Shown here one piece after another: positions 13,301 to 63,910 of a DNA stretch of 64,000 nucleotides (its first letter is position 1; each line of letters begins with the position of its first letter). Source of the DNA: Nitrospinales bacterium (GTDB taxonomy: Bacteria; Nitrospinota; Nitrospinia; Nitrospinales; VA-1); assembly GCA_965223795.1 (NCBI GenBank), contig CBDCXL010000002.1, positions 70,105-134,104 of the forward strand. The letters run 5' to 3'. The position numbers and the translations under genes are program-made. The notes under the pieces were generated by a model. It searched no databases, was not told the origin of the DNA, and worked only from the letters and a program-made list of their open reading frames with translations.

Positions 13301-15281
13301 CGGGATGCGGAGATTTGTATTTCGGCCATTTGACGATGGTTTCCCTTTCCGAGAGAGCGGTGGTGCCTTTCCAGCCGTAATCCCAGACGGAACCGTCGTA
13401 GGCGAGGATCTGGCCTTTCAGGTCGTCGGTGTGGCCGGGCTTGCCCTGAGGCGGCAGCATGTACTTCACCCAGTCCTTGACGTTGACGACCGGCGCTTTC
13501 TGGGTCCAGTCGCTGTTGCCTTTGCCGACGATCTTGAACTTCTTGCCGAACCAGTCCATCGTCTTGCCGACCAGCTTGTCGGAACTCACGCCTTTGGGAA
13601 TGCGTCCCTTACGATCGGGAAGCTCCTGCAGCGGACGCATGACGTCGGTGCTGCCGAACGGGTAGTTGCCGTCCTGAATCGTGTTGTACACACGCCAGTA
13701 GCCCCACATGCCGGCGACGTAGTGATGCGCGACGTGGCAGTGGAACAGAAAGTCGCCCGCCAGACGCTGGCACAGGCCGGAACCGCACTCGGTCTCAAGG
13801 TCCAGCGCTTCGGAAGGACCGATGACTTCCACGTCGACGCGGTCGGTGGTCGTGCGCACGACCGGGTACTTGACCGGACCGTTCCATGCGGCCGTGGTCA
13901 GGTTTTCCAGACCGGGCTCGCGCTTGGGTGAACGGGTCCAGCGGATCGTGCCGCCATGCGGATGGTGCGAGTGGAACACTTCGCCGCCGCCGTGGATCAG
14001 GCGGAACTTCGCCGGATCGCCCAGGTAGGACCGGGGGATCGTGGTCGGCGCATCGCCGAAGGTGTAGGAACTGTAAGACAGGGATTCGTCTTCAAAATGG
14101 AATTTCTTTTCCTGTACTGCAAGGTTGTTGATGCCGAACGGCTCACTGCGGTAGTTCATCGCGCGGGCAGAAGGACGGTACGCGTCGGTCTGCGGATCGC
14201 GCTGCGGAATCATCTCGCCGTGACGGTTCAGCGGACGGAAAGACTCGTCACCCACTTCATGATAGAACAGGGCGAACTCGCGGAAGTCTTTCGCTTCGTC
14301 GTTGACGATCATCGCCATCCAGCCGGATTCCAGCGGACCGCCGGTCCACGGATCCAGATACCTGGAACCTTTGGGCTCGACGATGAACGCGCCGATCAGA
14401 CCCAGCGAGGAAGGATCGCGGCCGGCATGACTCTGGATCATGTGGCTGCCTTCCTGCTCGTCGATGGGAATGAACCACTCGAAATCCTGCGTTTCGCCGG
14501 ACGGGATGATCGCACCGGGAGACGCGGCCGTCGCCGGAGCGCCGGTGGAGCTGATGATCATGGCGGAACCGTTGACCTGAAAACCGATGTCTTCGTCCTC
14601 GACCTCGTTGCGGACCTTGAAGCGCACGCAGTCGCCCTGGTTGCCGCGGATGGTCAGAGGCTGAATCACATCGCCCTGAAGACCATTGGTGAGAGAACCG
14701 GGATCGAGTTCGTCTTCACGCGCTTCGGCGTTTCTTTCTTCATCTTTACGAACCTGATCGACGTTCTTGGTGAGCACGTACATGTAGCCGGGATAATAGT
14801 CGCCCCACTGATTCAACGTGATCTCGACGTTGATCGCCGTGATGTCGTAAGTCTTGACCGGCGCGGAGCTGGGGCAGTGCGCCCCTTTGTACACTTTATC
14901 CGCGGCTTCGGAAGGTCCCAGCAGATAGCTCTGGCCGAGCTGATGCGCCGCCCAGGAATCGTGGAAACCGCCGCCCGCGGATGCCGGAGCGGCGTGCTCC
15001 TTCAGTTTGCCCTGGAGCTTGTCCATCAACCGCATGAACGTGTTGTTCATCTGCTCCTGGCGGTTGTCCATGCCGCTCATCATTTCCTCGGTGTTGACCT
15101 GCTCTTCCAGCTTCTTGAGCCAGGCCGGCTGGTCTACCGCGGAGTTGATGCTTGCGGGTTTAGCGTGCATGGAATGATCCATCTTCATTTGCGCGCCTGC
15201 GGGAAGCCCCCATCCCAGCACCAGAAAGGCCGCCGCGAGCGCATACCCAATTATCCACCTCTTTTTGACATGAAACTGCAT
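10338..15281 (-). CDS. giant (1647 aa) secreted multicopper oxidase, copy B
   Basis: Start moved to ATG 15281 (MQFHVKKRW...), which has GGAGGA 6 nt upstream. Same motifs and module order as copy A, with a high-identity paralogue alignment along the whole length. Confidence 0.9.
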   Translation of the reverse strand: MQFHVKKRWIIGYALAAAFLVLGWGLPAGAQMKMDHSMHAKPASINSAVDQPAWLKKLEEQVNTEEMMSGMDNRQEQMNNTFMRLMDKLQGKLKEHAAPASAGGGFHDSWAAHQLGQSYLLGPSEAADKVYKGAHCPSSAPVKTYDITAINVEITLNQWGDYYPGYMYVLTKNVDQVRKDEERNAEAREDELDPGSLTNGLQGDVIQPLTIRGNQGDCVRFKVRNEVEDEDIGFQVNGSAMIISSTGAPATAASPGAIIPSGETQDFEWFIPIDEQEGSHMIQSHAGRDPSSLGLIGAFIVEPKGSRYLDPWTGGPLESGWMAMIVNDEAKDFREFALFYHEVGDESFRPLNRHGEMIPQRDPQTDAYRPSARAMNYRSEPFGINNLAVQEKKFHFEDESLSYSSYTFGDAPTTIPRSYLGDPAKFRLIHGGGEVFHSHHPHGGTIRWTRSPKREPGLENLTTAAWNGPVKYPVVRTTTDRVDVEVIGPSEALDLETECGSGLCQRLAGDFLFHCHVAHHYVAGMWGYWRVYNTIQDGNYPFGSTDVMRPLQELPDRKGRIPKGVSSDKLVGKTMDWFGKKFKIVGKGNSDWTQKAPVVNVKDWVKYMLPPQGKPGHTDDLKGQILAYDGSVWDYGWKGTTALSERETIVKWPKYKSPHPGKRHPIQFSPLTGKLAWPHMTPHFGKRVPFARHHGGAPWLEPFHLKPDDEILASESGSGLTGPNVESSAPAKPGEHGRWSLCPRGAGRKQYNLHFINTPIQLSDAIGKTPPVIDKYGLIYVIDEDMAAVKADPKIAYPLVIRANVYDCVDVLLTSEWNDDDFTNFQMSKVNIHPHFFQFDNQASDGVISGFSYDQSMRSYRQFTKKMKDGHHVGMPVPMNAKLLKDTKPGDTVVEIEMAKGATPFHVGADIIVGIEVPNGKDARWIKSISPDPNKAFAKDGKYKITFSEAMKHAHKKGEIVTTEYVRYRWWVDADVGLVFWHDHAFGATTWPHGGIGSTIVEPWGSTYHDPKTGKEIRSGPVADIHGTEPFAYGRNGSFRELVAQLHDTVPHTAQLVSEGNPPGLSRKNAIAAGQSISFQMPDDMLEVAFPFLNGGTHTTGGGFNFRASSLKARLNNNKDASKLFSSKVHGEPSTPMLRAYVGDSVVFRLLHGMQNETHTFVVSGHGYRPERYDRDSRVTNTIHIGIAERYDLATTAGGYQGMAGDYLYYNGRTSKFSEGSWGIIRVHDKLQKDLKELPGNEEAEFKKKVRKEVCPKGAPVKNFSVVAINKALKFNPNAEDEIEVDFERKLLLANANAKIFALEGEVSKAADDDVMPHPLTIRANIGDCVKIKLTNRLKEGNASLHANNVAFDPMDSQGINVGNNPGDQTVAPGKSKTYTYYAHPDYGLNGALLWDFGNLTTNVRDGMYGAIIIGPRGSVYRDPETGKDISLGNSWKADVIVDKSYPGNEHLENYRDFALYFQDEDNILGTSFMPYLQNVAGLTGVNYRLEPWTYREDEGCELGNIFTPCVAADSDPATPVLKAHAGDRVMINVFGAHNEQNQMFNLDGHQWRRHIMQEGSDMIDVEEFGGGEYIQAFFTAGGTYRNPGTYLWLNARTPYQQAGQWGYFKVLPQGEQSILPLGQGAAKPNKAASTEPVGDDRLSMNK
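10416..11522. repeat. near-identical block shared with 2496-3602
   Basis: See the partner repeat at 2496-3602. Confidence 0.85.
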
Positions 15282-50596: not shown

Positions 50597-50673
<77 letters not shown>

Positions 50674-51914: not shown

Positions 51915-53168
51915 TCAGGACACCGTCAGCAGTTCGTCCCACTGCGTCGTGTACCGCGGCGACCGCAACCCGCAGCTCATCTTCCATTCCCGCGACACGC
52001 CCTGCGCGCCGAAGAACAGCGTGTCCGGCCCATGGTCGCCGTTGATCCCGTCCACCAGGCGCATCAGCCGGTCGCGCCGCGTATGCTGCGGCTCCACAAA
52101 CAGGTGCTTCTGCTCCACCGACTCGGGGATCAGGTCCAGCAGCATGAGGCCGGTCTTCTTGTATCGGTAGCCCGGCTTGTAAATCTTGTTCAGCCCGTGC
52201 TTCGCCGCTGCAATGACGATGGGGGTGTCGCTGGTCGGCACCGGCATGACGCAGGTGACGCCGTTGTGGTATTGCTGGTCGGCCGGCCTGAACTCGTTGG
52301 TGCGCACAAACACATAAACGGCCTGCGCCCGGCTTTTTTGGCTTCGGAGCTTCTCGCAGGCTCTGGCGGCGTAGTTGGAAAGCGCCTCTTCCAGCGCCCG
52401 CTTTTCCGTCACCAGCTTACCGAACGACTTTGAGGACATGATGTTTTTTCTTGGCTGGATGTCTTCCAGATCGAGGCAGGACTGGCCGCGCAACTCGCGC
52501 AGGATACGCTCCCCCACCACCGAGAGCTGTTTGCGGACGATGGGCGGGTGCGCGTCCCTAAGTTCAGCCGCCGTGTGGACACCCATGCGCGCCAGCCTAT
52601 CGGCCCAGCCGGAGGCGATCCCCCATACTTTTTCCACTGCCAGGTGTTTCAGAACTTCTTCGCGGACCCAAGCATCGCGGATGTCGAACACGCCGGAGCG
52701 CCGCTTCGCAAGCCGGTTGGCCACCTTCGCCAGTACCTTGGTCGGCCCGATGCCGATGGACACCGGGATCCCCGTCCACTGCCGGACCTTGCTGCGGATC
52801 ATCCCGCAATAGGCTTCCAGGTCTGGCTGGGGCATGTGGTCAAGCCGGAGAAACGCCTCGTCGATGGAATATACTTCCATGTCCGGCACGAAAAGACGCA
52901 GGCTGTCCATCACGCGCCGCGACATATCGCCATAGAGCTGGTAGTTCGAGGAAAACACCGCGGTGTTGTGTTTCTTGATGAACTTCTCGTGCTCGAAGTA
53001 GGGCACCGCCATGGGGATGTGGAGCGCCTTGGCCTCGCTGGAACGGGCGACGATGCAGCCGTCGTTGTTGGAGAGCACGACGATGGGGCGACCTCTGAGA
53101 GCCGGGTTGAACACGCGCTCGCACGAGGCGTAGAAATTGTTGCAGTCCACCAGGGCGAAGGTTTTCAT
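51915..53168 (-). CDS. umuC: Y-family translesion DNA polymerase (UmuC type)
   Basis: ALVDCNNFYASCERVF, VVLSNNDGC, and the UmuC-type layout. Its stop lies 2 nt before the SRAP ATG. Confidence 0.9.
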   Translation of the reverse strand: MKTFALVDCNNFYASCERVFNPALRGRPIVVLSNNDGCIVARSSEAKALHIPMAVPYFEHEKFIKKHNTAVFSSNYQLYGDMSRRVMDSLRLFVPDMEVYSIDEAFLRLDHMPQPDLEAYCGMIRSKVRQWTGIPVSIGIGPTKVLAKVANRLAKRRSGVFDIRDAWVREEVLKHLAVEKVWGIASGWADRLARMGVHTAAELRDAHPPIVRKQLSVVGERILRELRGQSCLDLEDIQPRKNIMSSKSFGKLVTEKRALEEALSNYAARACEKLRSQKSRAQAVYVFVRTNEFRPADQQYHNGVTCVMPVPTSDTPIVIAAAKHGLNKIYKPGYRYKKTGLMLLDLIPESVEQKHLFVEPQHTRRDRLMRLVDGINGDHGPDTLFFGAQGVSREWKMSCGLRSPRYTTQWDELLTVS

Positions 53169-53587
53169 AACAGGTTGTGCAAGCAGTGGGTCACCACGCC
53201 CCAGATTCGCACCTCCGAGCCTTCCGCAAGCTCGATCGTCGGATGGTTCGGATTCTCTGATTGAAGGGCTGCTTTGCCGTGCATCCGGAACAGCCGCTTC
53301 ACCGCCAGTTGCCCGTCCACCTCCGCGATCACGACCCTCCCGTGCACCGGCTCCAGGCTACGGTCCACGATCAGCAGATCGCCGGGGAAGATCCCGGCCC
53401 CGGTCATCGAATCCCCGGAAGCGCGGACGAAATACGTTGCTGTGGGATGCTTGATGAGGTGCTCATTGAGGTTGAGATCCCCTTCCATGTAGTCGTCCGC
53501 CGGGGATGGAAAGCCGGCGGACACATGCGACAACGCCACGGGAACCGCAGCGGCTCTTTGTGCATTGGAGGGCTTCGACATGGGCAC
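53165..53587 (-). CDS. umuD: LexA-like S24 peptidase (UmuD type)
   Basis: GFPSPA, VRASGDSM (Ser nucleophile) and a downstream Lys segment. 4-nt overlap with umuC. ATG 53581 is the likelier start. Confidence 0.85.
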   Translation of the reverse strand: MPMSKPSNAQRAAAVPVALSHVSAGFPSPADDYMEGDLNLNEHLIKHPTATYFVRASGDSMTGAGIFPGDLLIVDRSLEPVHGRVVIAEVDGQLAVKRLFRMHGKAALQSENPNHPTIELAEGSEVRIWGVVTHCLHNLL

Positions 53588-53727: not shown

Positions 53728-54483
53728 CTACCTCTTCTTTTTTACCCATCCCCGAGTTTTCATACATCCCAAAAAGGCTTTTTTGTAAGGCAGGGTTTCA
53801 TGGTTCGAAGCAATAATCCGGCATTCCTCTTTATCCCTACCCAATCTTGTATTTCCTTTCGAGACAGCAGCCCTCGTTGATATTTTCCGAATTTCTGGTT
53901 TTTTCTGAGGATATATTGTTGCAGCTCTAACGGGAGGCTGTACTATTTCAGGCGCTGGGACACTGGACGGTTCTGCCAGTTGCGAGTGTATTGGCTGTTT
54001 TTCCTCAAACGGTTCTGAGCTTTCTCCTAGAGCATCGGCCAATAGCTCTTCGGAAGATCCTTTTTGCGCTTGCGCAGTTGCCGTGGGTTCTACGATTTTT
54101 TCCGGTTGATTGATTGATGCAACTCGATCTCTTTCATCATACAAAACGGTAAGCTGGTACTTATCGCCAATAAAACCTTCTATTGGCGTCCCAAGTATTT
54201 CCCATAAGCCAAATGTGAGGATGTCCATTATGGCGTGACCAATGGCCCTGCCCGCGCTTGGCTCATTTCCCGTTTCGTATTCATAGACATCCATCCTTTT
54301 TCCATTTCCCAAGCTGGATGTCTTGATGGGAGGACCAAGTTGCAATTCGATTTGACCACGGCTCGCGCCTTCCTGGACCAGGCCCAGATTCGGCGCTTTC
54401 TTGCCGCTCATGGCCATCCCGACCGAGCATCCACTGCAAACTGTGAGGAAATAAGCGAATACTAAAACGTGGATGGTTCTCAT
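53728..54483 (-). CDS. hypothetical secreted protein / probable lipoprotein (251 aa)
   Basis: Start moved to ATG 54483, which has GGAGG 5 nt upstream. Signal MRTIHVLVFAYFLTVCSGC. AT-rich. Confidence 0.65.
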   Translation of the reverse strand: MRTIHVLVFAYFLTVCSGCSVGMAMSGKKAPNLGLVQEGASRGQIELQLGPPIKTSSLGNGKRMDVYEYETGNEPSAGRAIGHAIMDILTFGLWEILGTPIEGFIGDKYQLTVLYDERDRVASINQPEKIVEPTATAQAQKGSSEELLADALGESSEPFEEKQPIHSQLAEPSSVPAPEIVQPPVRAATIYPQKKPEIRKISTRAAVSKGNTRLGRDKEECRIIASNHETLPYKKAFLGCMKTRGWVKKKR

Positions 54484-54575
54484 GTGGACCTCCGGCGTTA
54501 TTTTTAAGGAGGGAGGGGGGAGGAGCAATATCGGCTATCCTATACCATAGTTCGGATAAGCGAATCAATGAAAAT

Positions 54576-55352
54576 TTAGGCGAGATTGTTGAATTGGAAA
54601 TCGACAGTGTAATAAGGGGGAGGTCTATCTTTATTTCCACTTATCCGTTGAATAATTTCTTCCGCCCTTTCGCCATCAATTTTCTTTTTCATTTCCAACT
54701 CTTTTGCCAATGCTTCAACAGCCGGCCAAATTCCAGGCTTCTTAAAAATTGCCCTAACTCTTTTCGTCGCCACCAGAATAAAATCCGATATATCTTCCTC
54801 ACAATATGAAAATTCAGAAGCCATCAAAAGGGCATTATCGTAATCCGTTGCGCCAGGGCAACTCAGATTTCTATTTTGTTCTTTATTTATTCTTTCAATA
54901 ATCTTCCTCTCGTCAGCTGATGAATAATAAACCTTATCTAATCCACAATGCCTGTATTTTGCCTCTGCAATTGGACCTGCTAATTGGGTAATCAATTCGA
55001 CTTCCATATTAAATTTTTTTCTGTTTTTCTGTAGTGCAATATCCTCCATACTCATATTTATAAATCGCACATCGTCTATATGCACACCAGTAAAAATATA
55101 GATTCCTGACGCCTCAACAGTTCCTATCACCCACCGCTCTCTTCCAAGCTGATCTACATAGGGCCCCTTTTCATATTCCTCATCCGTTCTTACGATAATT
55201 TCATAAAATATATGGCCTACATACCACATGGCAACAGCGTGTCCTGCTTCATGGTAAGCAAGGGCTTTCGATATTTTATTTTTTCGGCGCATTTTTCTTG
55301 AGAAGAAAGGAGCCCCGAAGGGCTCCCGAAATGGGTTGCCTTTATTAATCAT
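54576..55352 (-). CDS. stand-alone FtsH-type (M41) zinc metallopeptidase domain protein, without AAA+ or TM modules
   Basis: AYHEAGHAVAMW (HEXXH), LAGPIAEAKY and GATDYDNALLMASEF parallel the FtsH protease-domain motifs. ATG overlaps the upstream gene by 8 nt. Confidence 0.7.
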   Translation of the reverse strand: MINKGNPFREPFGAPFFSRKMRRKNKISKALAYHEAGHAVAMWYVGHIFYEIIVRTDEEYEKGPYVDQLGRERWVIGTVEASGIYIFTGVHIDDVRFINMSMEDIALQKNRKKFNMEVELITQLAGPIAEAKYRHCGLDKVYYSSADERKIIERINKEQNRNLSCPGATDYDNALLMASEFSYCEEDISDFILVATKRVRAIFKKPGIWPAVEALAKELEMKKKIDGERAEEIIQRISGNKDRPPPYYTVDFQFNNLA

Positions 55353-55692
55353 TCAACAACTTTTTCCAAATTTCTTCCGGATTATTTAGCAGCTTTTTAA
55401 AGTCCCTCATTTCATTATTGTTTCTGCCTCTTTTCCTAGCCTTTTTATTTGTAGAGTTGATTTGTTTTATTTCACCTTCCTTTTTAATTCCTGCCATTTC
55501 CGATTCTAATGTTTTAACTCGCTTAAATATTTCAACAATATCATTTAATCGACAAACATCCGTCTCTAAACTCCTATTGAATAACTTGTGAACATAAATA
55601 ATGTCCTTACTCAACTTGTCAAATAAATCTAAATTTACTTTTTCCATTTTTGCGATCTTTTCTGATAATTCTTTATTCGTCAACCTAGCCAT
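55345..55692 (-). CDS. hypothetical coiled-coil protein (115 aa)
   Basis: Start moved to ATG 55692, which has GGAGG 5 nt upstream. Heptad-like Lys/Glu/Leu-rich sequence. AT-rich. Confidence 0.6.
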   Translation of the reverse strand: MARLTNKELSEKIAKMEKVNLDLFDKLSKDIIYVHKLFNRSLETDVCRLNDIVEIFKRVKTLESEMAGIKKEGEIKQINSTNKKARKRGRNNNEMRDFKKLLNNPEEIWKKLLND

Positions 55693-55899
55693 GGCACCCT
55701 CCAAATAAAAAGGCCCGAGCGTTGTCTACGGGCACAAAGCACCGCCCCGGGCCTCACGGCTTCGGGACACTCGGACCAATTTACAGTTTGGATTTCAGGC
55801 ATAAAAAATCCCCAATTGAGGGCTGGGGGGAAGACCCCTTTGTGACTTTAGACGATTACACTTTATGCCCGATTGGGGAGATTGTCAAGATTCTACATT

Positions 55900-56089
55900 G
55901 GACGGCGCAAAATTGCGCCGTCCTCTGCTTCGGTATTGAATGGGTCCAAAATTGGACCGATTGAAAGGACTGTCCCGTGGATTTCAATGAGCGCAATTTT
56001 GCGCCCATTAAATACACCGACGCGCGGGGCGGTATCCAGTAGTCGCCAAATTGGCGACTACTGGGTTTAATGGGCTTAATTTTAAGCCC
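55900..56089. repeat. cluster of five GC-arm/AT-centre palindromes (P1-P5)
   Basis: P1 55900-55923, P2 55943-55958, P3 55991-56004, P4 56037-56063, P5 56072-56089. Arms are 6-13 bp around a centre of 1-2 A/T. Confidence 0.85.
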
Positions 56090-56128
56090 GTTGAATACGC
56101 TGACGTAAGCAGGTATTGCTTGGGGCGC

Positions 56129-57007
56129 TCATTTGGGCGGCCTTTTTTTTGTGTTTTCCTCCCCCGCGGCTTCCAGCTTCTTTTTGAAGAGTACGAAACG
56201 GTCCTCGGTGATTTCCTCGATCACCTTAAATCCAAACGGCTCCAGGACCTCCAGGACCTGGGCTTCGGTCATTTCAAAATCCGCGATCATGTTCTTGAGC
56301 TTCTCGACCAGGTTGTCGCTGATCTTTCCATCCTTCTGGGATTTGTTGCTGGTTGTGGTCCCGTTTTGCTTCGACGTTCGTTCTCCAGATCCGCCCGCTT
56401 CACCCCCAGCGCCATTTTCCCCTGTGTCGCCCTCGGTCGTGAAGATGTCCGAAGCACAGGTCACACGCCGCATGAGCGCCACGAATGCGCGCTTTTGGGC
56501 CATGAAAATGATCGTATTTCGCAGATCCTCAGGGTCCCGCAGGACCTGCTTGACCTTGTAGGGTGCGGACCGATTCCCTTTGCTTTTTCCCCATTTCACC
56601 CGCCGGCGGGATTCGATCGTTTCCTCCCATTCCTCGTCACATACGGCGCGACGCCAGCGGTATTTTTCCTCGAAGCTGCATGCCTCTGCATAGGCTGACC
56701 CGAGAAAACAGCCGTTGTTGTCGGCCGCTGTCATCTTCGCCCGGAAACGCACCTCATCGCCCCCGGATAAATCTTCCATCCCGGCTGGGTCCACGTGGAT
56801 CCCGAACAGGACGCCCAGCTTTTCCGCGCCTGGCTGCCACAATGAACGCTTGGAGGTTCCGGGAATGACCCCGAAATCGACGTTTGCAACCATTTTTTCC
56901 TTCATCAGGCGCCGGATCATATCCAGCCGCTCCCCCAGGGCAGCAATCGGGTCACGGCCCGCCTGAGTCGGCACAAGTGCGTTGCTTTCAGGACGTAAAT
57001 TTTCCAT
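56129..57007 (-). CDS. phage protein, possibly a single-strand annealing protein (Red-beta/RecT-superfamily-like)
   Basis: VDFGVIPGTSKRSLWQPGAEKL and NTIIFMAQKRAFVALMRR loosely parallel Red-beta. The function is tentative. Confidence 0.45.
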   Translation of the reverse strand: MENLRPESNALVPTQAGRDPIAALGERLDMIRRLMKEKMVANVDFGVIPGTSKRSLWQPGAEKLGVLFGIHVDPAGMEDLSGGDEVRFRAKMTAADNNGCFLGSAYAEACSFEEKYRWRRAVCDEEWEETIESRRRVKWGKSKGNRSAPYKVKQVLRDPEDLRNTIIFMAQKRAFVALMRRVTCASDIFTTEGDTGENGAGGEAGGSGERTSKQNGTTTSNKSQKDGKISDNLVEKLKNMIADFEMTEAQVLEVLEPFGFKVIEEITEDRFVLFKKKLEAAGEENTKKRPPK

Positions 57008-57018
57008 TTTTTCAGTTC

Positions 57019-57435
57019 CTATATTTCAAGATTTTCAAGTTCTCTATGCTTTTCAGCCCGAGCTAGGGGCGTGGCGCCCAATGCTCTCAAACATTCACAC
57101 AGGCGATCTGAGGCGGCGCTCAATTCCCAAAATTCCGGACGGCCGGCCAGGACCCCATCCTCCAGTGTGTAGGTCATCCCGTTCTCGTTGATAAACATTT
57201 TCAATTCGTACCAGGTTCCGTAGTGGATGCACGCTTGCTCCAGGACGCCTAGATCGACGTTATCGGCTCCAAATTCGCGTATGAGCCCTTCCCCTAGCTT
57301 TGTCCAATGCCGACGTGCTTCAGGGTTTGTTATCGAAGCAGGGGCCGGGGGGAGCGCCCCTCGTCGTTCCAGCCGTACCTTTTCAAAATCGACGATTTCA
57401 GCCATTTTTTTTCCCTTGCCGTTTGAATTTTTCAA
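57019..57435 (-). CDS. phage terminase small subunit-like protein (divergent P27 family)
   Basis: ..ARRHW..LG..L......D...L...C..Y.......G.........P.......A......L..LG.TP.AR pattern. The alternative ATG 57405 overlaps the upstream stop (ATGGCTGA). Confidence 0.6.
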   Translation of the reverse strand: MKNSNGKGKKMAEIVDFEKVRLERRGALPPAPASITNPEARRHWTKLGEGLIREFGADNVDLGVLEQACIHYGTWYELKMFINENGMTYTLEDGVLAGRPEFWELSAASDRLCECLRALGATPLARAEKHRELENLEI

Positions 57436-57874
57436 ATGGATTTTCCTTCTTTGGCTCCGGTGGAATCGCAGAAATTTTCCCGCGGCTGCTCGGATCCAGC
57501 CCCAACAGCATGCCCATTTTCCGCATATTTTCTTGAGCCTTATTACTGATGCTTATAAAGGGATTCGGGACATCAAAGCCTTTTGGGGTGGTCACCACCA
57601 GCCCCTGCCTTTTGAGTTCTTTTTCAGACTGGCACCAGCGGGAATAGTTCTGACAGTAGGACGCCAGGGTAGCGCGGTCCAGATTGCTCAGAAGCCCCAA
57701 GCTGTGGAGTTCCTTGGCAAGCCGGCGCCATTCTGCCCGCGCGCCAGCATCTAAGTGAGTAGGCGCCGACGGCAAGGAGGGTTCCGGCTTCGGCTCGTTC
57801 TTATTTATTCGGCATTTTTGCAATGTGCCGGTCAAAGCCTTTAATTGTGTTGGTTTACGTGGCCTTCCAGCCAT
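57398..57874 (-). CDS. phage terminase small subunit, P27 family
   Basis: MAGRPRKPTQLKALTG...P..L...A..EW......L...G.L...D...L..YC...S.W...E..L...G......G....NP......KA......M...LGL.PSSR. Confidence 0.75.
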   Translation of the reverse strand: MAGRPRKPTQLKALTGTLQKCRINKNEPKPEPSLPSAPTHLDAGARAEWRRLAKELHSLGLLSNLDRATLASYCQNYSRWCQSEKELKRQGLVVTTPKGFDVPNPFISISNKAQENMRKMGMLLGLDPSSRGKISAIPPEPKKENPFEKFKRQGKKNG

Positions 57875-57898
57875 GATGTTTTCCTGTTCCCGTCAACC

Positions 57899-57975
57899 GG
57901 CGCAAAATTGCGCCCGTTAAATCTAAGTGTCGCCAATTTGGCGATAGTTGAAATCAGTCATCCTTAAGTTAAGGA
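57899..57975. repeat. cluster of three palindromes (P6, P7, P10) at ~31-bp centre spacing
   Basis: P6 57899-57914 GGCGCAAAATTGCGCC; P7 57930-57944 TCGCCAATTTGGCGA; P10 57961-57975 TCCTTAAGTTAAGGA. Confidence 0.85.
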
Positions 57976-58084
57976 CCACTGAAATGGGGGTTCCCAATAC
58001 CCCTTTTGCCCATTTTGCACGCATAAAAATTTGACTGCCATCCGCCGGTCCCATTTTGTCAGGCTGTAGAGATTCCTACTCCCC

Positions 58085-58717
58085 CTACCCATCCATGTGT
58101 GTGGTGGGGCTTGCGATCCCTTCGACCTTCGGGATGGTCTGCCTTATTGTATTCAGCGCAGCGTCCAGATCCTCGATGTCCTGCGACTTCAGGTTCTCGG
58201 CGCTTCGGATTCCCTCCCTGATGGCAGCAAGGGCCTTCCTCACAACCTCAACATTGCCATGGAAATCCTTTTCACGGGCCAGGCTTACGGGATTCCGTTT
58301 CCCCGGAAGCTCAATGTTTGTGACGTCCCGGGCCATGATCTGCTCTTGAAGGTCCCTCAGTTCCCGAATGAAAAGGTCAATGGCTGGATCCGCTGAATTC
58401 CTGAGAAAGGTTTCCGCCTGATGGATTGTGGTTTCGAATCCATGGGCTATTGCCCGTTTCTCACGCTGCGATTCAGCCCAATTCGCTTCTGCCTTTTCCA
58501 AACTCTTCCGGGCCTTCAAAACCTTCGACCACGCATCAGATGCGGCCTGGTTAAATTTGGGCATCTGCTTCTCCTGGTCGGCCCTGGTCGTCTCGATCTT
58601 CGATATGGCCTGCAGGCGGCTCTCTCGGATTTCACCCTGCCGTTTCTTCACCAGCTCCTGCCCCTGATCACTTTTCAGGAAATAATCAAAAAGCCCTTTG
58701 TCTGCTATTGTTTTCAT
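58085..58717 (-). CDS. hypothetical helical phage protein (210 aa)
   Basis: Start moved to ATG 58717 so that palindrome P8 stays intergenic. No motif recognised. Confidence 0.55.
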   Translation of the reverse strand: MKTIADKGLFDYFLKSDQGQELVKKRQGEIRESRLQAISKIETTRADQEKQMPKFNQAASDAWSKVLKARKSLEKAEANWAESQREKRAIAHGFETTIHQAETFLRNSADPAIDLFIRELRDLQEQIMARDVTNIELPGKRNPVSLAREKDFHGNVEVVRKALAAIREGIRSAENLKSQDIEDLDAALNTIRQTIPKVEGIASPTTHMDG

Positions 58718-58759
58718 CTGAAAGTTCCGTTGCTCATTGTTTTTAAAAAAGAGGAATTC

Positions 58760-58783
58760 GGACGGTCCAAAATTGGACCGTCC
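58760..58783. repeat. palindrome P8
   Basis: GGACGGTCCAAAATTGGACCGTCC. The outer arms match P1 and the inner arms match P2. Confidence 0.85.
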
Positions 58784-58841
58784 TCTTACGTCAATGCTAT
58801 GAAGCACCGCCGCCCCGTATTCTGAGGCGGCGGACTCTATA

Positions 58842-60128
58842 TCACGATCGAGTCTGAAGATTGATAAAGGGTGAAAGGGTATTCGTACCCTTAAACGGCG
58901 TGATCGGCGCATTCTGGATCGGCTGGCCGTCCTGGCGCAGCACGAACCGGAAGGTCATCTCGTCCGTGAGGAATTGCACGTGGATGGACAGATCCGCCCG
59001 GATGCCACCCTTCTCGATCAGAACGTACTGGTTCAGATCAGCGAAGATGATATCTCCGGCCGTTCCCAGCGCTTCGCACTGCTCGATGGGGGTGATAGGG
59101 CGCCCGAAAAGCGTCCCGAATGGGGCTGCAGAAAGCCCGCCGGCAGGCACAAAAACCGGAACGCCGCCGGTCCCAACGGCATGGCTCAACTGGAAAAGCT
59201 GAGGCCAGACTTCCTGGTTGATGTACCATTCGGCGCGCATCAGGCTAGATGCGGGCATGCGGGCGTACATCTTTTCGATGTTTTCCGCAATGACCGTTGA
59301 AGCAGCCTGGCCGCTTTCCTTGGATACCGTCACGAGTGCGGGGGAATTGAGGATACCCATGGGTTTACCCGCACCGTCACCGCGGACGATGGCGTCGTCG
59401 ATTTTAAAGCCGAATTCCTCAGTGAACGCCTGCCGGACAACCATTTCCAGCGCGGCCGCATCGGCAAGCAGCTCCTCGGTGACATAGGCCAGGCCGATCA
59501 GCTTTTTGAGGTTCAGCTCCATCTGGCGGAACTTCGGTTTCGAGGCCGTGGCCGCGGCGGCTTCGGCTTTCCAGTACGCCTGAACGCCACCCCAGCGGGA
59601 CCCGTCGACCCGGGATGTCTCGTCCACAGCCGGGATCTTGATCCCGTTGGCGCCCGAACTGATGGGGATCCGCCGGCACCTTCTGGAAAGCATCCCGGTC
59701 TCATGCACCTGGTTCAGCAGTTCATTGGAAAAATCCTGCTGGACCAGCCACCCGCCTTCGGATGAGACGCTTTCGCCAAGGCCGGTAGCCGCATTGTATT
59801 GCAACCGTGGATCCGACATTGCGTTCCGATCCGCGGCCCTGGCCACGGCCACAAGCTGTTCACCGAAACTCTCGAAGGAGTTTTCGGGAGAAGGATTGTA
59901 AGATCCCTGGTGAAGAGAAGGCATGTTGCGTTCAAACTCAGCCTCCCTTTCCGCTACTTCCAGGTCATGCCTCATTTCCTCAACTTCTGATATTACTGCG
60001 TCGTACTCTTTGAGCTTTTGAGCCTTTTCAGCTTTACTGCCCGCGCTGCCCGCTTCATCCAGAAGCGTTTGCGCCTTTTGCATTAAATCAGCTTTTTTCT
60101 GAATTAAAAACTTCCTGTTTTTGCTCAT
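58842..60128 (-). CDS. phage major capsid protein, HK97 family
   Basis: Start moved to ATG 60128, which has a GGAGGG RBS. Coiled N-terminal delta-like segment, then ..EGGWLV.., ..DGSRWGGV.AYW..E, ..VTEELL.D.., ..RGDGAGKP.GIL. Confidence 0.9.
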   Translation of the reverse strand: MSKNRKFLIQKKADLMQKAQTLLDEAGSAGSKAEKAQKLKEYDAVISEVEEMRHDLEVAEREAEFERNMPSLHQGSYNPSPENSFESFGEQLVAVARAADRNAMSDPRLQYNAATGLGESVSSEGGWLVQQDFSNELLNQVHETGMLSRRCRRIPISSGANGIKIPAVDETSRVDGSRWGGVQAYWKAEAAAATASKPKFRQMELNLKKLIGLAYVTEELLADAAALEMVVRQAFTEEFGFKIDDAIVRGDGAGKPMGILNSPALVTVSKESGQAASTVIAENIEKMYARMPASSLMRAEWYINQEVWPQLFQLSHAVGTGGVPVFVPAGGLSAAPFGTLFGRPITPIEQCEALGTAGDIIFADLNQYVLIEKGGIRADLSIHVQFLTDEMTFRFVLRQDGQPIQNAPITPFKGTNTLSPFINLQTRS

Positions 60129-60180
60129 TCGTCCCTCCGTGGACAAATATTTTTTTTAACCTACAAATTAAAATTTTCCG

Positions 60181-60195
60181 CCGGCTTTAAGCCGG
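60181..60195. repeat. palindrome P9
   Basis: CCGGCTTtAAGCCGG. The core is related to P5. Confidence 0.6.
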
Positions 60196-60284: not shown

Positions 60285-60542
60285 TCAGTTCATTCGTTTT
60301 TCAAAATCGAGAAGTTTAGGCAGTCTCAGCTCACCATGATCCGTGAGCGATTTATAGAGAAGCTGAACCACCCTGTAGAAAATTTGATAGTCTCCTGTTC
60401 CAACTCTGTTTTCTTCCAGGAAATCCAGAACTTTATTGATCTTCATTTCGAAAAGCGGATCGCTCTCTTCCATTTCGATAGACCAGTTGGCATGATCCAG
60501 CAATACCCGTTGATCCGCGAACCACTGTTTGTCTCTAACCAT
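60285..60542 (-). CDS. hypothetical phage protein (85 aa)
   Basis: ORF in the operon context only. Confidence 0.5.
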   Translation of the reverse strand: MVRDKQWFADQRVLLDHANWSIEMEESDPLFEMKINKVLDFLEENRVGTGDYQIFYRVVQLLYKSLTDHGELRLPKLLDFEKRMN

Positions 60543-60569: not shown

Positions 60570-61692
60570 TTAGAACGTCCGCGCGCCGCCGCGCGAACGC
60601 GCGTCGATGAGCCCGGCCATCACCGCCTCCTGGATCGTCGGCATCAAGTTCAGGATCTCCGCCCGCACCGTCGCCGCCACTCCGGTAGATATGTGCATGT
60701 GATTGACGACCGAACCGCTGCCCTGATGCCCCGGCGTTTCCACCGTGACGCGCTCGCCGCGGCTTGCCTTGAACGCCACCAGGTTCTGGTCGATGCCGCC
60801 GCGGCCGCCGACCGTGAACTGACCGCCGTGCGCAAATCCAATAAGTTTTCTAAGCGCTCCCACGTTCTCCTTCGTTCCATCCCCAAAAAGTGGCAATGTG
60901 ATGGTACTTCGAACTAAAGCCCGCGTGATATCCTGCATGATGGCTGTTGCGAAGTTCTTCAGCGCTTCCATTTTGTCCTGCGTGGTGGTGATGGCATCGA
61001 CGATGGAATTCTCGGTGGTCTGCCCGATGGCGGAGAAGAACTGGTTCACCTGGTCGCTGGTTTCCTTGCTTTTGCTGGTCAGGTCCGACAGCCGGCCTTC
61101 CAGCAGCGACTGCGCCTTCAGGAACTGGTCCGGCGTTTTGTCGAATTCGCCCAGGTCGGCGCGCGCCTTCAATTCGTCCATCTGCTTTTTCAGCCGCTCG
61201 ATCGGCGTTTCCGATTCGCGGAACACCTGGTTGAGCAGCTGCTGCGCCTCGCTGATTTTCGCGATCTGGCCGGGCACCGTGGACGCCGCGGCGAAAAATC
61301 CCTCGACATCTTCCTCCGCCCCCTCGAACGCCTCGCCAACCTTTTCCACCGCCTTCGAGGCGTTGAACGCTTCCAGCGCCAGGTCCTGAGTGCTTGTCTT
61401 TGCCTGTTTGTCCGCCTGCGCGGTCGAACGCGAAGCGCAGCTCCTGCAGCCGTTCAGTGGTGATGCCGATTCGGACTGCCGACTTGCCGATCTCGTCGGC
61501 GAAGTTCAGCGATTCCTTCGTCAGCTTGAGAAGCAACCCGCCAGTCAGGATGCCTGCCAATGTTCGCTGTAAACCGGCGAATGATTTGGTCAATCCGCCC
61601 AGTTGCCCGCGCGCGCGGTCCATGCCCTTGTTGAATTGATCACTTTCAAGCGATAGGATCGCTCGCAATTTTCCAATGTCGGCTGTAGCCAT
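60570..61692 (-). pseudogene. short phage tail tape-measure-like protein, frame broken near 61408-61420
   Basis: N-terminus (..FADEIGKSAVRIGITTERLQELRFAFDRAG) is in one frame. The rest (ADKQAKTSTQDLALEAFNAS... to ..GGRGGIDQNLVAFKASRGERVTVETP..) is in the +1 frame. ATG 61692 has an AGGAG RBS. Confidence 0.6.
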
Positions 61693-61694
61693 TT

Positions 61695-63386
61695 TCAAAA
61701 ACTCCTTTGAAGATATCTGCCGGTTGGCAAATCATAAATCAGCGTAACCATCCCGGGTTGACCTACTTCTCGGAACCGGACTTTCTGCACGTGAATTTGA
61801 ACCTCCCTCGATGCCGGTTGCGAAATATCCCGCCACACCGTGATGCAGTTGTCCGCCTTGTTTCTCCAATGAGCGGAACCGCTCACGTCATAAGGCGTGG
61901 GAACCGGATAATTTCCATTCGAATTTTTCTGCAACTTTGTGGGATGGGCCACCAGCCACACGTGAACCTGATAAGTCCGAGCGAAACGCCGAATCTTTGT
62001 GAGCGCGGCGCTGATGTATTCGGTCTCGGACATGCCAGATGGGCGGCTGTGATCCAGTTCATTCCATGGATCGAGCACAAGACCGCGAATGCCTTTCCGA
62101 AAAACCAGCGCCCGCGCAAGGCGAAGGACGCCTTCGACAGTTAAATCATCCTCATCCGGCAAAATGAAAGTGAAGTGCTCCCCAAGCCATTTAAGTCCCC
62201 GCTCTACATCGTCGCTCCCCATGCGTGGCGTTGGGCCGTCCGGAAATGGTTTTCGAATTCTTTTTTCCAGCAACTTCGCGGCGTGCCGCTCCAGTGGGAG
62301 GTTCTCGGGGGAACAGATCCCAAAGTTCCAGCCTTCCGATTCCGCCAAGTTGACCAGCATGGCATCAAGAAGTTCAGATTTCCCATGAGAGGGAATACCC
62401 GTCACCAACGTCCACTCACCAGGCCGCACGCTGTAATATTTTTTAAGCGACAACCAGCCCGGATCTGCGCCGCCTGTGAGTCCTTCAGCGTGTAGGGCCC
62501 GGACTTTTTCAGCGATGTCTCGAACCTCATGAAGCCCCCGGATCGGGTAAGGTTTAGCAGTTTCTATGCACGTGCGCACCGCCTCCGGGCCATGATTCCG
62601 CAATACATCATTCGCATCCTTGCATCCTTCCGGCCAGTTCACCAGATGGCATTTTTCTGGCCCCAGGCGCCGCGCAAGCTCAGATTCCAGTTTTTTCCCT
62701 TGCACGTCATTGTCCCCAGCCAAAACGTGTTTTTTGACCGGTTCAATTACCTCTGTGCATCCTTCCAGGAAACCCAGCTTATCGGCCGCGCCATTCGGCA
62801 CCGATACGCATGAAGGGAATCCCGCCGCCTCGATGGACAGCTTGTCCAGCTCCCCCTCAACCCAGATCAATTCATCCGTCTGGATGTCGTCATACCCGTA
62901 CAAGGTGCGCTGCGCGTCCTTGACCAGCTTGAAGTTTTTCTCACGGTCTCGGAATTTAACATTAACCACTTGGCCGTTTTTTAGGTACGGAAACCGAATC
63001 ACGTCCACTTTCGTTTGAGCCTGGGGCATCCACTCCAGCCCAGTGGACACTTGATTCCGGTCCAGGATGTGCTCGGGGATGCAACGCTCATCAACCAAGT
63101 ACTGGTATGCCCATTCAGGCAGTTCTGCTTTTGAGTACTCAATACGCCTGGAGTTGTGTTTCGTCGAACTGGTCACCGATCCGTTCCCATTCAGCTCCCG
63201 GTTCGCCTTCAACCCATCCTTCCAGCCACAGTGGTGGCAGAACCACGTCTCCTTGTTGATGTTGACCGCCAGGCAGGGATCTTTTTTATTCCGCCTGGAA
63301 TCGCTGCATTGCGGGCACGTGGTTTTTACCTCCCCCGCGGTCCGCCCCCGGGTGTCGATGCCGTGGTCGATAAACGATCCTGTCAC
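61695..63386 (-). CDS. bifunctional primase-helicase (T7 gp4-like: Zn finger, TOPRIM and DnaB/RecA-type helicase)
   Basis: Start moved to GTG 63386 (GGAGG 7 nt upstream, GTGA overlap). CPQC...CHHC, VEGELDKLS, GDNDVQG, and Walker A GIPSHGKS. Confidence 0.88.
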   Translation of the reverse strand: MTGSFIDHGIDTRGRTAGEVKTTCPQCSDSRRNKKDPCLAVNINKETWFCHHCGWKDGLKANRELNGNGSVTSSTKHNSRRIEYSKAELPEWAYQYLVDERCIPEHILDRNQVSTGLEWMPQAQTKVDVIRFPYLKNGQVVNVKFRDREKNFKLVKDAQRTLYGYDDIQTDELIWVEGELDKLSIEAAGFPSCVSVPNGAADKLGFLEGCTEVIEPVKKHVLAGDNDVQGKKLESELARRLGPEKCHLVNWPEGCKDANDVLRNHGPEAVRTCIETAKPYPIRGLHEVRDIAEKVRALHAEGLTGGADPGWLSLKKYYSVRPGEWTLVTGIPSHGKSELLDAMLVNLAESEGWNFGICSPENLPLERHAAKLLEKRIRKPFPDGPTPRMGSDDVERGLKWLGEHFTFILPDEDDLTVEGVLRLARALVFRKGIRGLVLDPWNELDHSRPSGMSETEYISAALTKIRRFARTYQVHVWLVAHPTKLQKNSNGNYPVPTPYDVSGSAHWRNKADNCITVWRDISQPASREVQIHVQKVRFREVGQPGMVTLIYDLPTGRYLQRSF

Positions 63387-63910
63387 AGCACCACCTCCCC
63401 CCGGCCGGCGCTGTTCATCTCTGCTTGTGACACGCGGCCATTCCCCTTTGCCTGGCGTTGTATGCACAGCTGGTCCCATTGCTTCCGCAATTTTCCGGGG
63501 CTCAGTATATTTGAGCGCCAGAATAAATTTGCATTCGCCCAAGTGAACAGATCGCGGATCTCCTGATGCGCTCGACCGTCTCGTTCCCGCATCAATCTGA
63601 TATCGTCCGCCCAGGAATTCAGATTGGGTTGCTTAAAATCTTCCTTGAGAGTCCGGATCTTCTCCAGGATAAACTCCGCGGTTTCGAGATCCACCGTGGT
63701 GAATTTTTGGGTTCTTCTGGCGGTAAAATTTTCAGAAGGAGAAGCGTCCGGAATCTTTGATTCCGGCACATTATTCTTTTGATTTTGTAAAAGGCTTTCG
63801 TTAGAAGTGCCATTTTTGGCCCCTCTAGCTTGTTTTGGCGTTATTTTTGAAGTACTTACAGAAGTGCCATTCTTGGCACTTCTTACAAAAGTTGGCACTT
63901 CACTATACAA
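63383..63910 (-). CDS. hypothetical protein upstream of the primase-helicase (possible replication/origin-associated); start uncertain
   Basis: The C-terminal half looks protein-like (..FWRSNILSPGKLRKQWDQL..). The N-terminal ~35 codons overlap the iteron DNA, so the true start may lie further downstream. Confidence 0.5.
   Translation of the reverse strand: MYSEVPTFVRSAKNGTSVSTSKITPKQARGAKNGTSNESLLQNQKNNVPESKIPDASPSENFTARRTQKFTTVDLETAEFILEKIRTLKEDFKQPNLNSWADDIRLMRERDGRAHQEIRDLFTWANANLFWRSNILSPGKLRKQWDQLCIQRQAKGNGRVSQAEMNSAGRGEVVL

Follow-up and report, generated by a model that had tools for sequence, protein, structure and literature searches.

We examined ten palindromes in a 64,000-nt stretch of DNA from a Nitrospinales bacterium (GCA_965223795.1, contig CBDCXL010000002.1, positions 70,105–134,104; hereafter the window), all of which lie in four non-coding spacers of the 4.3-kb capsid/terS module of an integrative, satellite-like island. 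We consider it well supported, from comparison of the sequences, that these palindromes are extra-genic copies of the rha box, a putative stem-loop carried inside the coding sequence of phage rha genes, and, as part of the same claim, that selection or correction for intrastrand pairing keeps them self-complementary, their copies having been multiplied by tandem and inverted duplication. The hairpin embedded in rha is itself undescribed as far as our literature searches reach, and we regard it as the more important by-product of the analysis.

The palindromes are perfectly paired and clustered far beyond chance

An exhaustive palindrome scan of the whole window recovered all ten palindromes that an earlier note on this DNA had listed, at or adjoining the places where it had put them; P4 proved to be one pair longer on each side. 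The arms, 6–14 bp long, are perfect, with zero mismatches in all ten, and enclose A/T centres of 1 nt (P4, P7, P9 and P10) or 2 nt (P1, P2, P3, P5, P6 and P8). The units are, by position:

P1: 55900–55923, GGACGGCGCAAAATTGCGCCGTCC (11+2+11), a 24-nt perfect palindrome of type A (GGACGG..CCGTCC); minus-strand reading G-R-R-N-F-A-P-S (GRRNFAPS)
P2 unit: 55934–55966, core 55943–55958, GGTCCAAAATTGGACC; TTGAA flanks it on each side; minus-strand reading F-N-R-S-N-F-G-P-I-Q-Y
GGACTGTCC: 55967–55975, the outer arms of P1/P8 with the inner part missing, probably a collapsed palindrome copy
P3 unit: 55977–56027 (+), core 55991–56004, GCGCAATTTTGCGC; arms of only 6, rha-like flanks; plus-strand reading D-F-N-E-R-N-F-A-P-I-K-Y-T-D (peptide DFNERNFAPIKYTD)
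P4: 56036–56064, a 14+1+14 perfect palindrome, core TCGCCAAATTGGCGA
P5 unit: 56066–56095 (+), core 56072–56089; reading F-N-G-L-N-F-K-P-V-E-Y-A-D (peptide FNGLNFKPVEYAD)
P6 unit: 57893–57922 (−), core 57899–57914, 25 nt upstream of the terS start; minus-strand reading F-N-G-R-N-F-A-P-V-D
P7: 57930–57944, TCGCCAATTTGGCGA, 1-nt centre
P10 unit: 57954–57982, core 57961–57975, TCCTTAAGTTAAGGA; 5 further pairs beyond a 2×2 internal loop
P8: 58760–58783, inside a 51-nt rha-like segment, 58751–58801 (+); plus-strand reading E-E-F-G-R-S-K-I-G-P-S-S-Y-V-N-A (peptide EEFGRSKIGPSSYVNA), the 2-nt centre being flipped relative to the flanks
P9: 60181–60195, CCGGCTTTAAGCCGG, the weakest member, its centre about 60 nt upstream of the capsid start

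The clustering of near-palindromes of this family within 4.3 kb is far beyond chance. The 64 kb hold 19 near-palindromes (9 or more pairs and no more than 1 mismatch), seven of which belong to the family and fall inside the 4.3 kb; block-shuffled windows gave 8–12 per whole 64 kb. The string CAA-W(1–2)-TTG occurs 13 times in the window, and the seven copies in the module spacers all carry 3–11 further perfect pairs, against only 0–2 for the remaining six. Within the window, no family copy was found in the ~50 kb of host DNA or in the replication and umuDC parts of the element, which bears out the confinement to intergenic regions of the element that the earlier note had described. One further palindrome, CGCCAATA-N8-TATTGGCG at 54165–54188, lies inside a 266-aa open reading frame (ORF) and has arms like those of P4/P7, possibly by chance.

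Comparison of the units with one another revealed duplication together with compensated change. P3/P6, P4/P7, P2/P8 and P5/P9 share cores, and P1 and P8 differ by a double compensatory change (CG..CG vs TC..GA), both as previously noted; P5 and P6 add another compensated double change (TT..AA vs GC..GC), which falls within a 52-nt inverted duplication. Here 56043–56094 (P4–P5) is an inverted copy of 57893–57944 (P6–P7), 79% complementary and 1798 nt away, and the two modules bracket terS1, terS2 and the phrog_10048 gene. From centre to centre, P6, P7 and P10 are separated by 30.5 and 31 bp, matching the spacing of about 31 bp estimated before. The motif TT(G/A/T)AAT, which had been seen to follow most palindromes, is real for eight of the ten; as seen here, however, it is part of a longer, imperfect palindrome, TTNAA-N2-arm-centre-arm-N2-TTNAA, whose outer part is TTNAAT. 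In the rha frame, TTNAAT supplies the codons F-N at one end of the unit and I/V-x-Y at the opposite end.

The arms thus differ between units yet never mismatch, while centre length, centre orientation and flanks drift, which indicates that intrastrand pairing is selected. The compensated changes and the absence of mismatches in all ten units sustain the earlier suggestion that symmetry is under selection. A dimer that reads sequence would require half-sites that stay the same and are evenly spaced, so the variable arms and centres argue against a fixed dimer operator or centromere. Operators for a single dimeric DNA-binding protein and N15-like dispersed centromere sites (sopC type), the first two functions put forward in the earlier note, were rejected on these grounds: at least five different arm sequences occur within this one element, the half-site spacing varies with the length of the centre (1 nt in four units, 2 nt in six), copies differ in the direction of the asymmetric centre (AAAATT vs AATTTT), and two related satellites (L001 and L059, see below) lack the palindromes altogether.

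As RNA, the units are predicted to form hairpins of −7.8 to −24.5 kcal/mol, among them those of P1 (−21.3 kcal/mol, z −7.6), P4 (−24.5 kcal/mol, z −9.2) and P10 (−15.3 kcal/mol). The fold of P9 has a z-score of only −1.7, and the 436-nt spacer from P5 to P1 folds with z −10.5. None of the ten has a canonical U-tract, in agreement with the earlier note: none is among the terminator-like sites, and no T-run lies within 2 nt of a stem on either strand. On the minus strand, TCTTTTTT sits 8 nt beyond the P8 stem.

Phage rha genes contain a conserved hairpin

Searching public collections (596 Gb) with the P1/P8 pattern returned 30 loci. Most are ordinary terminators composed of an A-run, a hairpin and a T-run, which is unsurprising in view of how many hairpins a collection of that size holds. 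Eight of the 30 lie in frame within Phage_pRha genes, where they encode G-R-x-N-F-x-P-S, and one more, in L171 (see below), is intergenic. In Phage_pRha genes the hairpin is a 24-nt palindrome centred on the AAT|TTT (N-F) codons, with G-R-L-N-F-E-P-S as the codons spanned. We call this element the rha box, a predicted stem-loop of ~24 nt in the part of rha that encodes F-(G/R)-(R/L)-L-N-F-E-P-S-S-Y.

The rha hairpin is clearly under strong synonymous and covarying constraint, i.e., under selection. We used two samples chosen regardless of DNA sequence, namely 113 Rha proteins and 27 distinct rha genes from viral contigs collected with degenerate peptide patterns. In 107 of the 113 proteins, the residues on either side of N-F show covariation as antisense codon pairs (L-E 72, R-A 11, L-Q 10, L-K 4, G-A 3, H-V 3, S-G 2 and A-G 2). 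All but one of the 27 genes have 8–11 of 11 complementary pairs in the 24-nt core, with 9.38 of 11 observed vs 5.61 ± 0.24 after synonymous-codon randomisation. When the 27 sequences were aligned, 87% of the cells were paired in register vs 33–47% in slid registers, and the covariation score (0.285 vs 0.09) was reached by none of 500 shuffles. Even close Rha homologues differ in their arms, which come in no fewer than eight symmetric variants. Synonymous-site conservation and antisense-codon covariation together imply that pairing of the nucleic acid dictates a part of the amino-acid sequence of Rha, and the palindrome of locus L182, which is read in another frame, implies that the nucleic-acid hairpin, not the peptide, is the conserved entity. 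Wobble-type mismatches are rare on either strand of the rha genes and hence do not indicate which strand or molecule is folded.

The hairpin is widespread. Our Rha search matched 641 phage records, including phi80, P22, Stx phages, ICP1, and staphylococcal and Paenibacillus phages. The hairpin is present in phi80 rha, in the Stx-type phage phi191 (11 pairs), in an ICP1 regulator and in Paenibacillus phage Pagassa; it is shifted in P22 rha and, in the staphylococcal phage Henu2, it has a flipped centre and lies just upstream of the N-F motif. Rha genes with the hairpin come from many phyla (loci L185–L264, L162, L165, L168, L170, L177, L179, L181, L183, L266 and L269–L271). In 25 phage loci, the 3 kb on either side of rha contained no second copy, and a blastn search of phages with a consensus 57-mer gave no match. 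HK022 Roi is reported to bind a site within its own gene; HK022 roi contains no comparable palindrome.

An extra-genic copy was found in one other element, the Desulfobacteraceae phage-like contig L171, which carries an intergenic, inverted 48-nt copy (1921–1974, +) of its own rha segment (1148–1198, −). This 18-codon rha fragment has P8-like flanks and lies ~730 nt upstream of the rha gene, between a Mor-like gene and a 74-aa ORF. Its 36 flanking and core bases are identical to those of the contig's own rha, and in the arms TCGCTC..GAGTCC has given way to GGACGG..CCGTCC, a compensatory swap.

Temperate phages carry rha as one of their commonest regulatory/antirepressor genes, and its function is still obscure; the stem-loop points to an unstudied layer of control of rha.

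The palindromes match a model of the rha box

We built a covariance model, R1, from the 27 phage rha segments, using their sequence and 10 base pairs but no sequence from the window, and ran it over both strands with filters off. Its E-values are rough, the calibration having been shortened. The seven best matches in the window were all palindromes, and nothing else fell below E 5:

P8 (+): 33.2 bits, E 2.9e-5, full length
P1 (−): 29.2 bits, E 2.6e-4
P3 (+): 21.7 bits, E 0.015, full length
P1 (+): 21.6 bits, E 0.016
P8 (−): 18.4 bits, E 0.092
P6 (−): 15.9 bits, E 0.35, marginal
P5 (+): 14.6 bits, E 0.71, marginal

P2, P4, P7, P9 and P10 were not reported by R1 (at E ≤ 10 in the case of P2) and are tied to the others through shared cores only. 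In 1.4 Mb of other phage loci, the only matches below E 0.01 were the rha gene of L171 and its intergenic copy; the sole further match up to E 1 was a marginal one in L008 (E 0.78).

The resemblance extends to individual rha alleles. The 24 nt of P1 recur unchanged as the palindrome of the rha genes in L165, L170 and L179. P8 is a single nucleotide away from the GRSNFGPS allele of L177 and is flanked by GA(G/A)GAATTC and TCTTAC, which are common to L162 and L171; the 51 nt around it (58751–58801) read as a relic of a rha gene. The P3 core equals that of phi80 rha (phi80 peptide QRNFAPIDFID), the TAC ACC GAC of the P3 unit is identical to phi191 rha, and the P5 peptide matches that of phi191 rha, FNALNFEDVTYTD, at 8 of 13 residues. 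The arms of P4 resemble the rha hairpin of Pagassa, TCGCCAATTTTGGAGA. Judged by their arms, at least two rha-box types are represented, GGACGG..CCGTCC (P1 and P8) and AAYG..CRTT (P2, P3, P5 and P6). P4, P7, P9 and P10 look like shortened-centre derivatives: by similarity alone, P4 and P7 resemble the Pagassa-type core minus one centre base, and P9 and P10 resemble a P5 with a shortened centre.

No Rha domain was detected on any frame around the units, which are surrounded by stop codons, and the window contains no rha gene. The short unit-encoded peptides gave no Pfam match, being too short.

The palindromes lie in a satellite-like island

The earlier note had spoken of a phage-like element. 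The element is indeed mobile, but its layout is satellite-like rather than that of a phage. A tRNA-Met gene forms the left attachment site, and metagenome contigs with this locus run ~2.7 kb past the window and end in a 30–43-nt copy of the 3' part of the tRNA (from 50627), which we read as attR. With attL and attR at tRNA-Met, the island is ~16.1 kb long, and its integrase is presumably encoded in the 2.7 kb beyond the window. All genes between 51.3 and 64 kb are on the minus strand. The features are:

63383–63910 (−), replication initiator (O/DnaD-like)
61695–63542 (−), primase-helicase
60570–61349 and 60850–61698 (−), two overlapping ORFs with weak tape-measure-like matches (Tape_meas_lam_C, E 1e-6)
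60285–60542 (−), 85-aa ORF, followed by the P9 spacer
58842–60128 (−), HK97-type capsid, followed by the P8 spacer
58085–58717 (−), orfX, coiled-coil-like protein, followed by the spacer with P10, P7 and P6
57398–57874 (−), terS1 (Terminase_4)
57019–57435 (−), terS2 (Terminase_4)
56129–57007 (−), phrog_10048 protein, followed by the spacer with P5 to P1
53728–55692 (−), three AT-rich ORFs without matches
51915–53587 (−), umuD and umuC (translesion polymerase V), inside the island, adjoining the tRNA end
50597–50673, tRNA-Met

No match to a large terminase or a portal, and no clear tail gene, was found in the 13.4 kb of the island seen. A capsid and small terminases without these partners make a satellite-like layout, and the element would depend on a helper. 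Its nearest protein relatives are in Nitrospinaceae and Nitrospinota metagenome-assembled genomes. The two overlapping ORFs at 60570–61698 may be one frameshifted gene or a gene pair. An 11-bp perfect inverted repeat with a 45-nt loop, GAGGTGGAGGG...CCCTCCACCTC (60213–60223/60269–60279), occupies the stretch from the 85-aa ORF to P9 that precedes the capsid gene.

The three AT-rich ORFs have a GC content of ~42% vs ~55% in the remaining island. They gave no Pfam, PHROG or PADLOC match (orfX gave none in Pfam or PADLOC) and may be accessory or defence cargo; there is weak evidence that some metagenome contigs skip 54569–55689. Ahead of them, a promoter-like site, TTGACA-17-TAAAGT (55888–55860, −), starts 12 nt after P1, and a terminator-like hairpin with a T-run (55810–55828, −) follows ~30 nt beyond it; the two may delimit a short leader or small RNA ahead of these genes. 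A 56% paralogue of the phrog_10048 protein (P0014) is encoded on the same 3.25-Mb contig and suggests that the genome holds a second related element. A homologue elsewhere adjoins an integrase in a phage early module (L071). That the units accompany the phrog_10048 gene was ruled out, as its homologues in L071–L074 stand in ordinary phage early modules without such palindromes.

In the host region of the window, we also observed a 4.8-kb duplication (2481–7305 vs 10402–15231, 91% identity). Both copies span one giant ORF each, of 1651 and 1684 aa, that weakly matches an MnxG-like multicopper oxidase.

Related satellites lack the palindromes

Relatives were sought with the capsid in genome and metagenome contigs, with an orfX profile in three collections and with terS in a protein database. 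The capsid-orfX-terS order was common to only two of the loci found, L001 (L070 is the same contig) and L059. Neither has any of the ten palindromes, and the P8 segment and the P10-P7-P6 array are insertions relative to both; the units thus lie outside the core apparatus by which the satellite family is packaged or assembled. The pattern of two successive palindromes (P3-P4/P6-P7 type) had no match in genome contigs or viral contigs.

Two other features of the spacers are held in common. The non-coding block between orfX and terS (57985–58084) is conserved with L001 and L059, as GGGGG..ATCTCTACAGC..GGACCGGC..GTCAAAT..GCAAAATGGG, and makes a stronger candidate for a cos/pac site or a promoter than the palindromes do. 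Directly after the capsid stop lies a hairpin, CACCGCCGCC-N11-GGCGGCGG (58805–58833), and both relatives have a hairpin at the same position (CCCGTCGC..GCGGCGGG) that differs from the palindromes; a hairpin after the capsid gene thus seems to be a habit of the family.

What the units may do

The reading that we favour, and hold only tentatively, is that the units are stem-loops punctuating a late polycistronic RNA; transcription, RNA folding and an effect on expression are all things that we infer. The units would act in cis, the stem being selected and not the loop or half-site sequence. Every unit lies between co-directional cistrons, which makes a late polycistronic RNA, read from the minus strand through the units, the most likely substrate. 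Without U-tracts, the hairpins (−8 to −25 kcal/mol) would be expected to serve as processing sites, exonuclease barriers or attenuators rather than as full terminators, and they could set the relative amounts of the capsid, orfX, terS and cargo messages, as repetitive extragenic palindromic (REP) elements and T7 intercistronic hairpins do. In line with this reading, a hairpin of the P1/P8 type with A- and T-runs is an ordinary terminator-like structure in many genomes, and the relatives keep a hairpin of their own after the capsid gene. Among the functions listed in the earlier note, RNA or DNA hairpins fit best insofar as they mean stem-loops; the roles in packaging or replication attached to them are disfavoured, the palindromes being absent from relatives that share terS.

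Several observations weigh against punctuation of RNA. There is no strand-specific G-U signal, wobble-type mismatches in the extensions being found on both strands, and the units occur in both orientations. Tandem arrays with a 31-bp pitch and TTNAA blocks placed symmetrically on two sides look more like features at the DNA level. Stems of 11–14 bp are short for classical RNase III sites. Related satellites manage without the units, and the four runs that contain the locus are metagenome assemblies, DNA-like and of even depth. Lastly, this reading leaves unexplained why the units derive from rha and why two rha-box types were acquired together with their flanks.

That derivation is what a second reading, which we consider unlikely, would explain neatly. 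The units would be DNA-level sites for a Rha-family protein or another reader of the rha box, variants of which the satellite would have captured ahead of its capsid, orfX, terS and cargo genes; the Rha of a helper, or one encoded in the 2.7 kb beyond the window, could then switch or tune the late module, much as P2 Ogr does at the late promoters of P4. Were Rha to bind the palindrome within its own gene, in the way that HK022 Roi is reported to bind a site in its gene, the rha coding sequence would be the only source of such sites, which would explain rha-derived copies with flanks from more than one rha subtype. The rha gene is also the sole constant companion of the hairpin in phages of Gram-positive and Gram-negative hosts. 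Positions upstream of gene starts, independence of orientation, a 31-bp phasing equal to three helical turns and a P1 centre ~58 nt upstream of the transcription start implied by the predicted TTGACA-17-TAAAGT promoter all suit DNA-binding sites, and satellites can encode Rha (PMC4936722). However, the arm variants, at least eight among close Rha homologues and five in this element, make a sequence-reading dimer implausible, and the spacing of the centres varies by 1 nt. The lack of a second hairpin near phage rha genes, of a rha gene in the window and of such a palindrome in HK022 roi likewise speaks against it.

The units could instead be functionless by-products of mutation, an account that we also think unlikely. 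In that case, the rha hairpin would attract template switching or illegitimate recombination when phage and satellite replicate together; fragments would settle and duplicate in tolerant spacers, and template switching within the hairpin (quasi-palindrome correction) would keep them perfect and so mimic compensatory evolution. This agrees with the absence of the units from related satellites, relative to which they look like insertions between conserved blocks, with the presence of both tandem and inverted duplications, and with the centre deletions, flips and collapsed copy GGACTGTCC. The arms of the L171 copy, swapped as a block between identical flanks, also look like the outcome of conversion rather than of point mutation. 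Yet all ten units are perfect although their flanks have diverged, all the spacers of one module contain them and no other spacer of the island does, and the rha hairpin itself is clearly under selection.

Mimicry appears improbable. Pairing or competition between satellite transcripts of the rha box and the rha mRNA of a helper, or of a rival phage, would silence or titrate the regulator; the copies would be antisense (the flanks of P3, P5 and P8 on minus-strand RNA) or have self-complementary cores, and the arm variants would match several rha alleles. The identity of P1 to the 24-mer of GRRNFAPS rha genes and the single difference between P8 and the L177 allele fit this idea, as do the similarities of P8 and P3 that reach into coding flanks and the L171 copy, which runs in the same transcript direction as its rha and could pair with 36 of 48 nt of the message. 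On the other hand, flanks beyond the extended palindrome are poorly conserved (TAC in three of four units, GAC in two of four), half of the units are in sense orientation, the commonest allele, L-E, is not represented among the units, and phages of the host have no known rha that could be the target.

Sites for packaging, replication or partition, such as small-terminase arrays (lambda cosB, SPP1 pacL), an origin or N15-like centromeres, are very improbable: three phased units do stand directly upstream of terS with an inverted copy of the array beyond the terS genes, and GC-arm/AT-centre palindromes resemble some origins, but L001 and L059 share terS and the block at 57985–58084 without having the palindromes, arm sequences are not conserved, the units are far from the replication genes, and an integrative island, in which no parAB was seen, does not need a centromere.

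More broadly, the rha box might be a general cis-element of temperate-phage regulation, with the satellite's library of variants sensing, titrating or silencing helper Rha regulators or rha messages. We regard this as a speculative proposal, possible though somewhat unlikely. If true, the library would amount to nucleic-acid mimicry of the internal control element of a helper gene, for detection of helpers or interference with them, and if one factor reads both the satellite copies and the genic hairpin, satellites would have a new route for coupling to, or interfering with, their helpers. If the copies are merely transcript punctuation or scars, they would still show how a hairpin in a coding sequence can seed a REP-like repeat family.

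Comparison with known elements

At gathering and relaxed thresholds, Rfam, together with ARAGORN, returned only the tRNA-Met; the best matches in the region had E-values of 0.17–3.8, far below gathering scores. Intrinsic terminators share the hairpin, but the units lack the U-tract and are not among the scanned terminator-like sites, and this class was rejected; consensus scans of the window for terminators and promoters gave counts equal to those of shuffles. Integron attC sites were rejected as well, since they measure 57–141 nt vs 14–29 nt for the units, which have no inverse core, and no intI was found in the window; GTTRRRY-like strings (GTTGAAT and GTTAAAT) are explained by the extended palindrome. 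Set beside serine-invertase crossover sites (hix/gix type, 12-2-12), the family shows an 11-2-11 architecture, and its inverted modules flank a 1.8-kb segment; however, the half-sites are not conserved, four centres are of 1 nt, no recombinase match was found in the window and the contigs show no inversion joints.

P2 Ogr/P4 delta sites (TGT-N12-ACA) are, like the units, dyad-symmetric elements upstream of satellite morphogenesis genes that may take input from a helper protein, but their ends are conserved, their spacing is fixed and they sit at −55 of defined promoters, whereas arms and spacing vary among the units and several of these lie downstream of genes. The promoter early stem-loops (PeSL) of T4-like phages combine a terminator-like stem-loop with a full sigma-70-type promoter (−35, N17, −10) (PMC2839356, PMC4122927). 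These too are small, phage-borne stem-loops with an adjacent motif at module boundaries, variable in sequence between lineages and linked to gene shuffling; among the units, however, only P1 is followed by a promoter-like site, and TTNAA is symmetric on both sides. The RNase III sites of T7 and lambda sib are intercistronic hairpins in a polycistronic phage message that need no U-tract and confer differential message stability. They classically comprise ~20 bp with internal loops, and arrays of three to five hairpins, as found here, would be unusual among them.

REP elements of enterobacteria and pseudomonads and the bacterial interspersed mosaic elements (BIME) offer a further parallel, as GC-rich palindromes of 20–40 nt in transcribed extragenic spacers, single or clustered in alternating orientation, with compensated stem subfamilies and a role as mRNA stabilisers or attenuators. 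REPs differ in being chromosome-wide, high-copy and tied to REP-associated tyrosine transposases (RAYT) and a conserved 5' tetranucleotide, whereas ten units in 4.3 kb derive from coding sequence; no Y1-transposase match was found among the island ORFs scanned, and AATG precedes only three units. The units may thus be described as a kind of intergenic stem-loop repeat family with an unusual origin, a hairpin embedded in coding sequence. Being extra-genic copies and not genes, and lying nowhere in frame inside a Phage_pRha gene, they also differ from the parent hairpin: the latter occurs in phages as one in-frame copy, constrained jointly at the protein and nucleic-acid levels, whereas the units in the window are non-coding, multi-copy, present in both orientations and marked by insertions and deletions at their centres.

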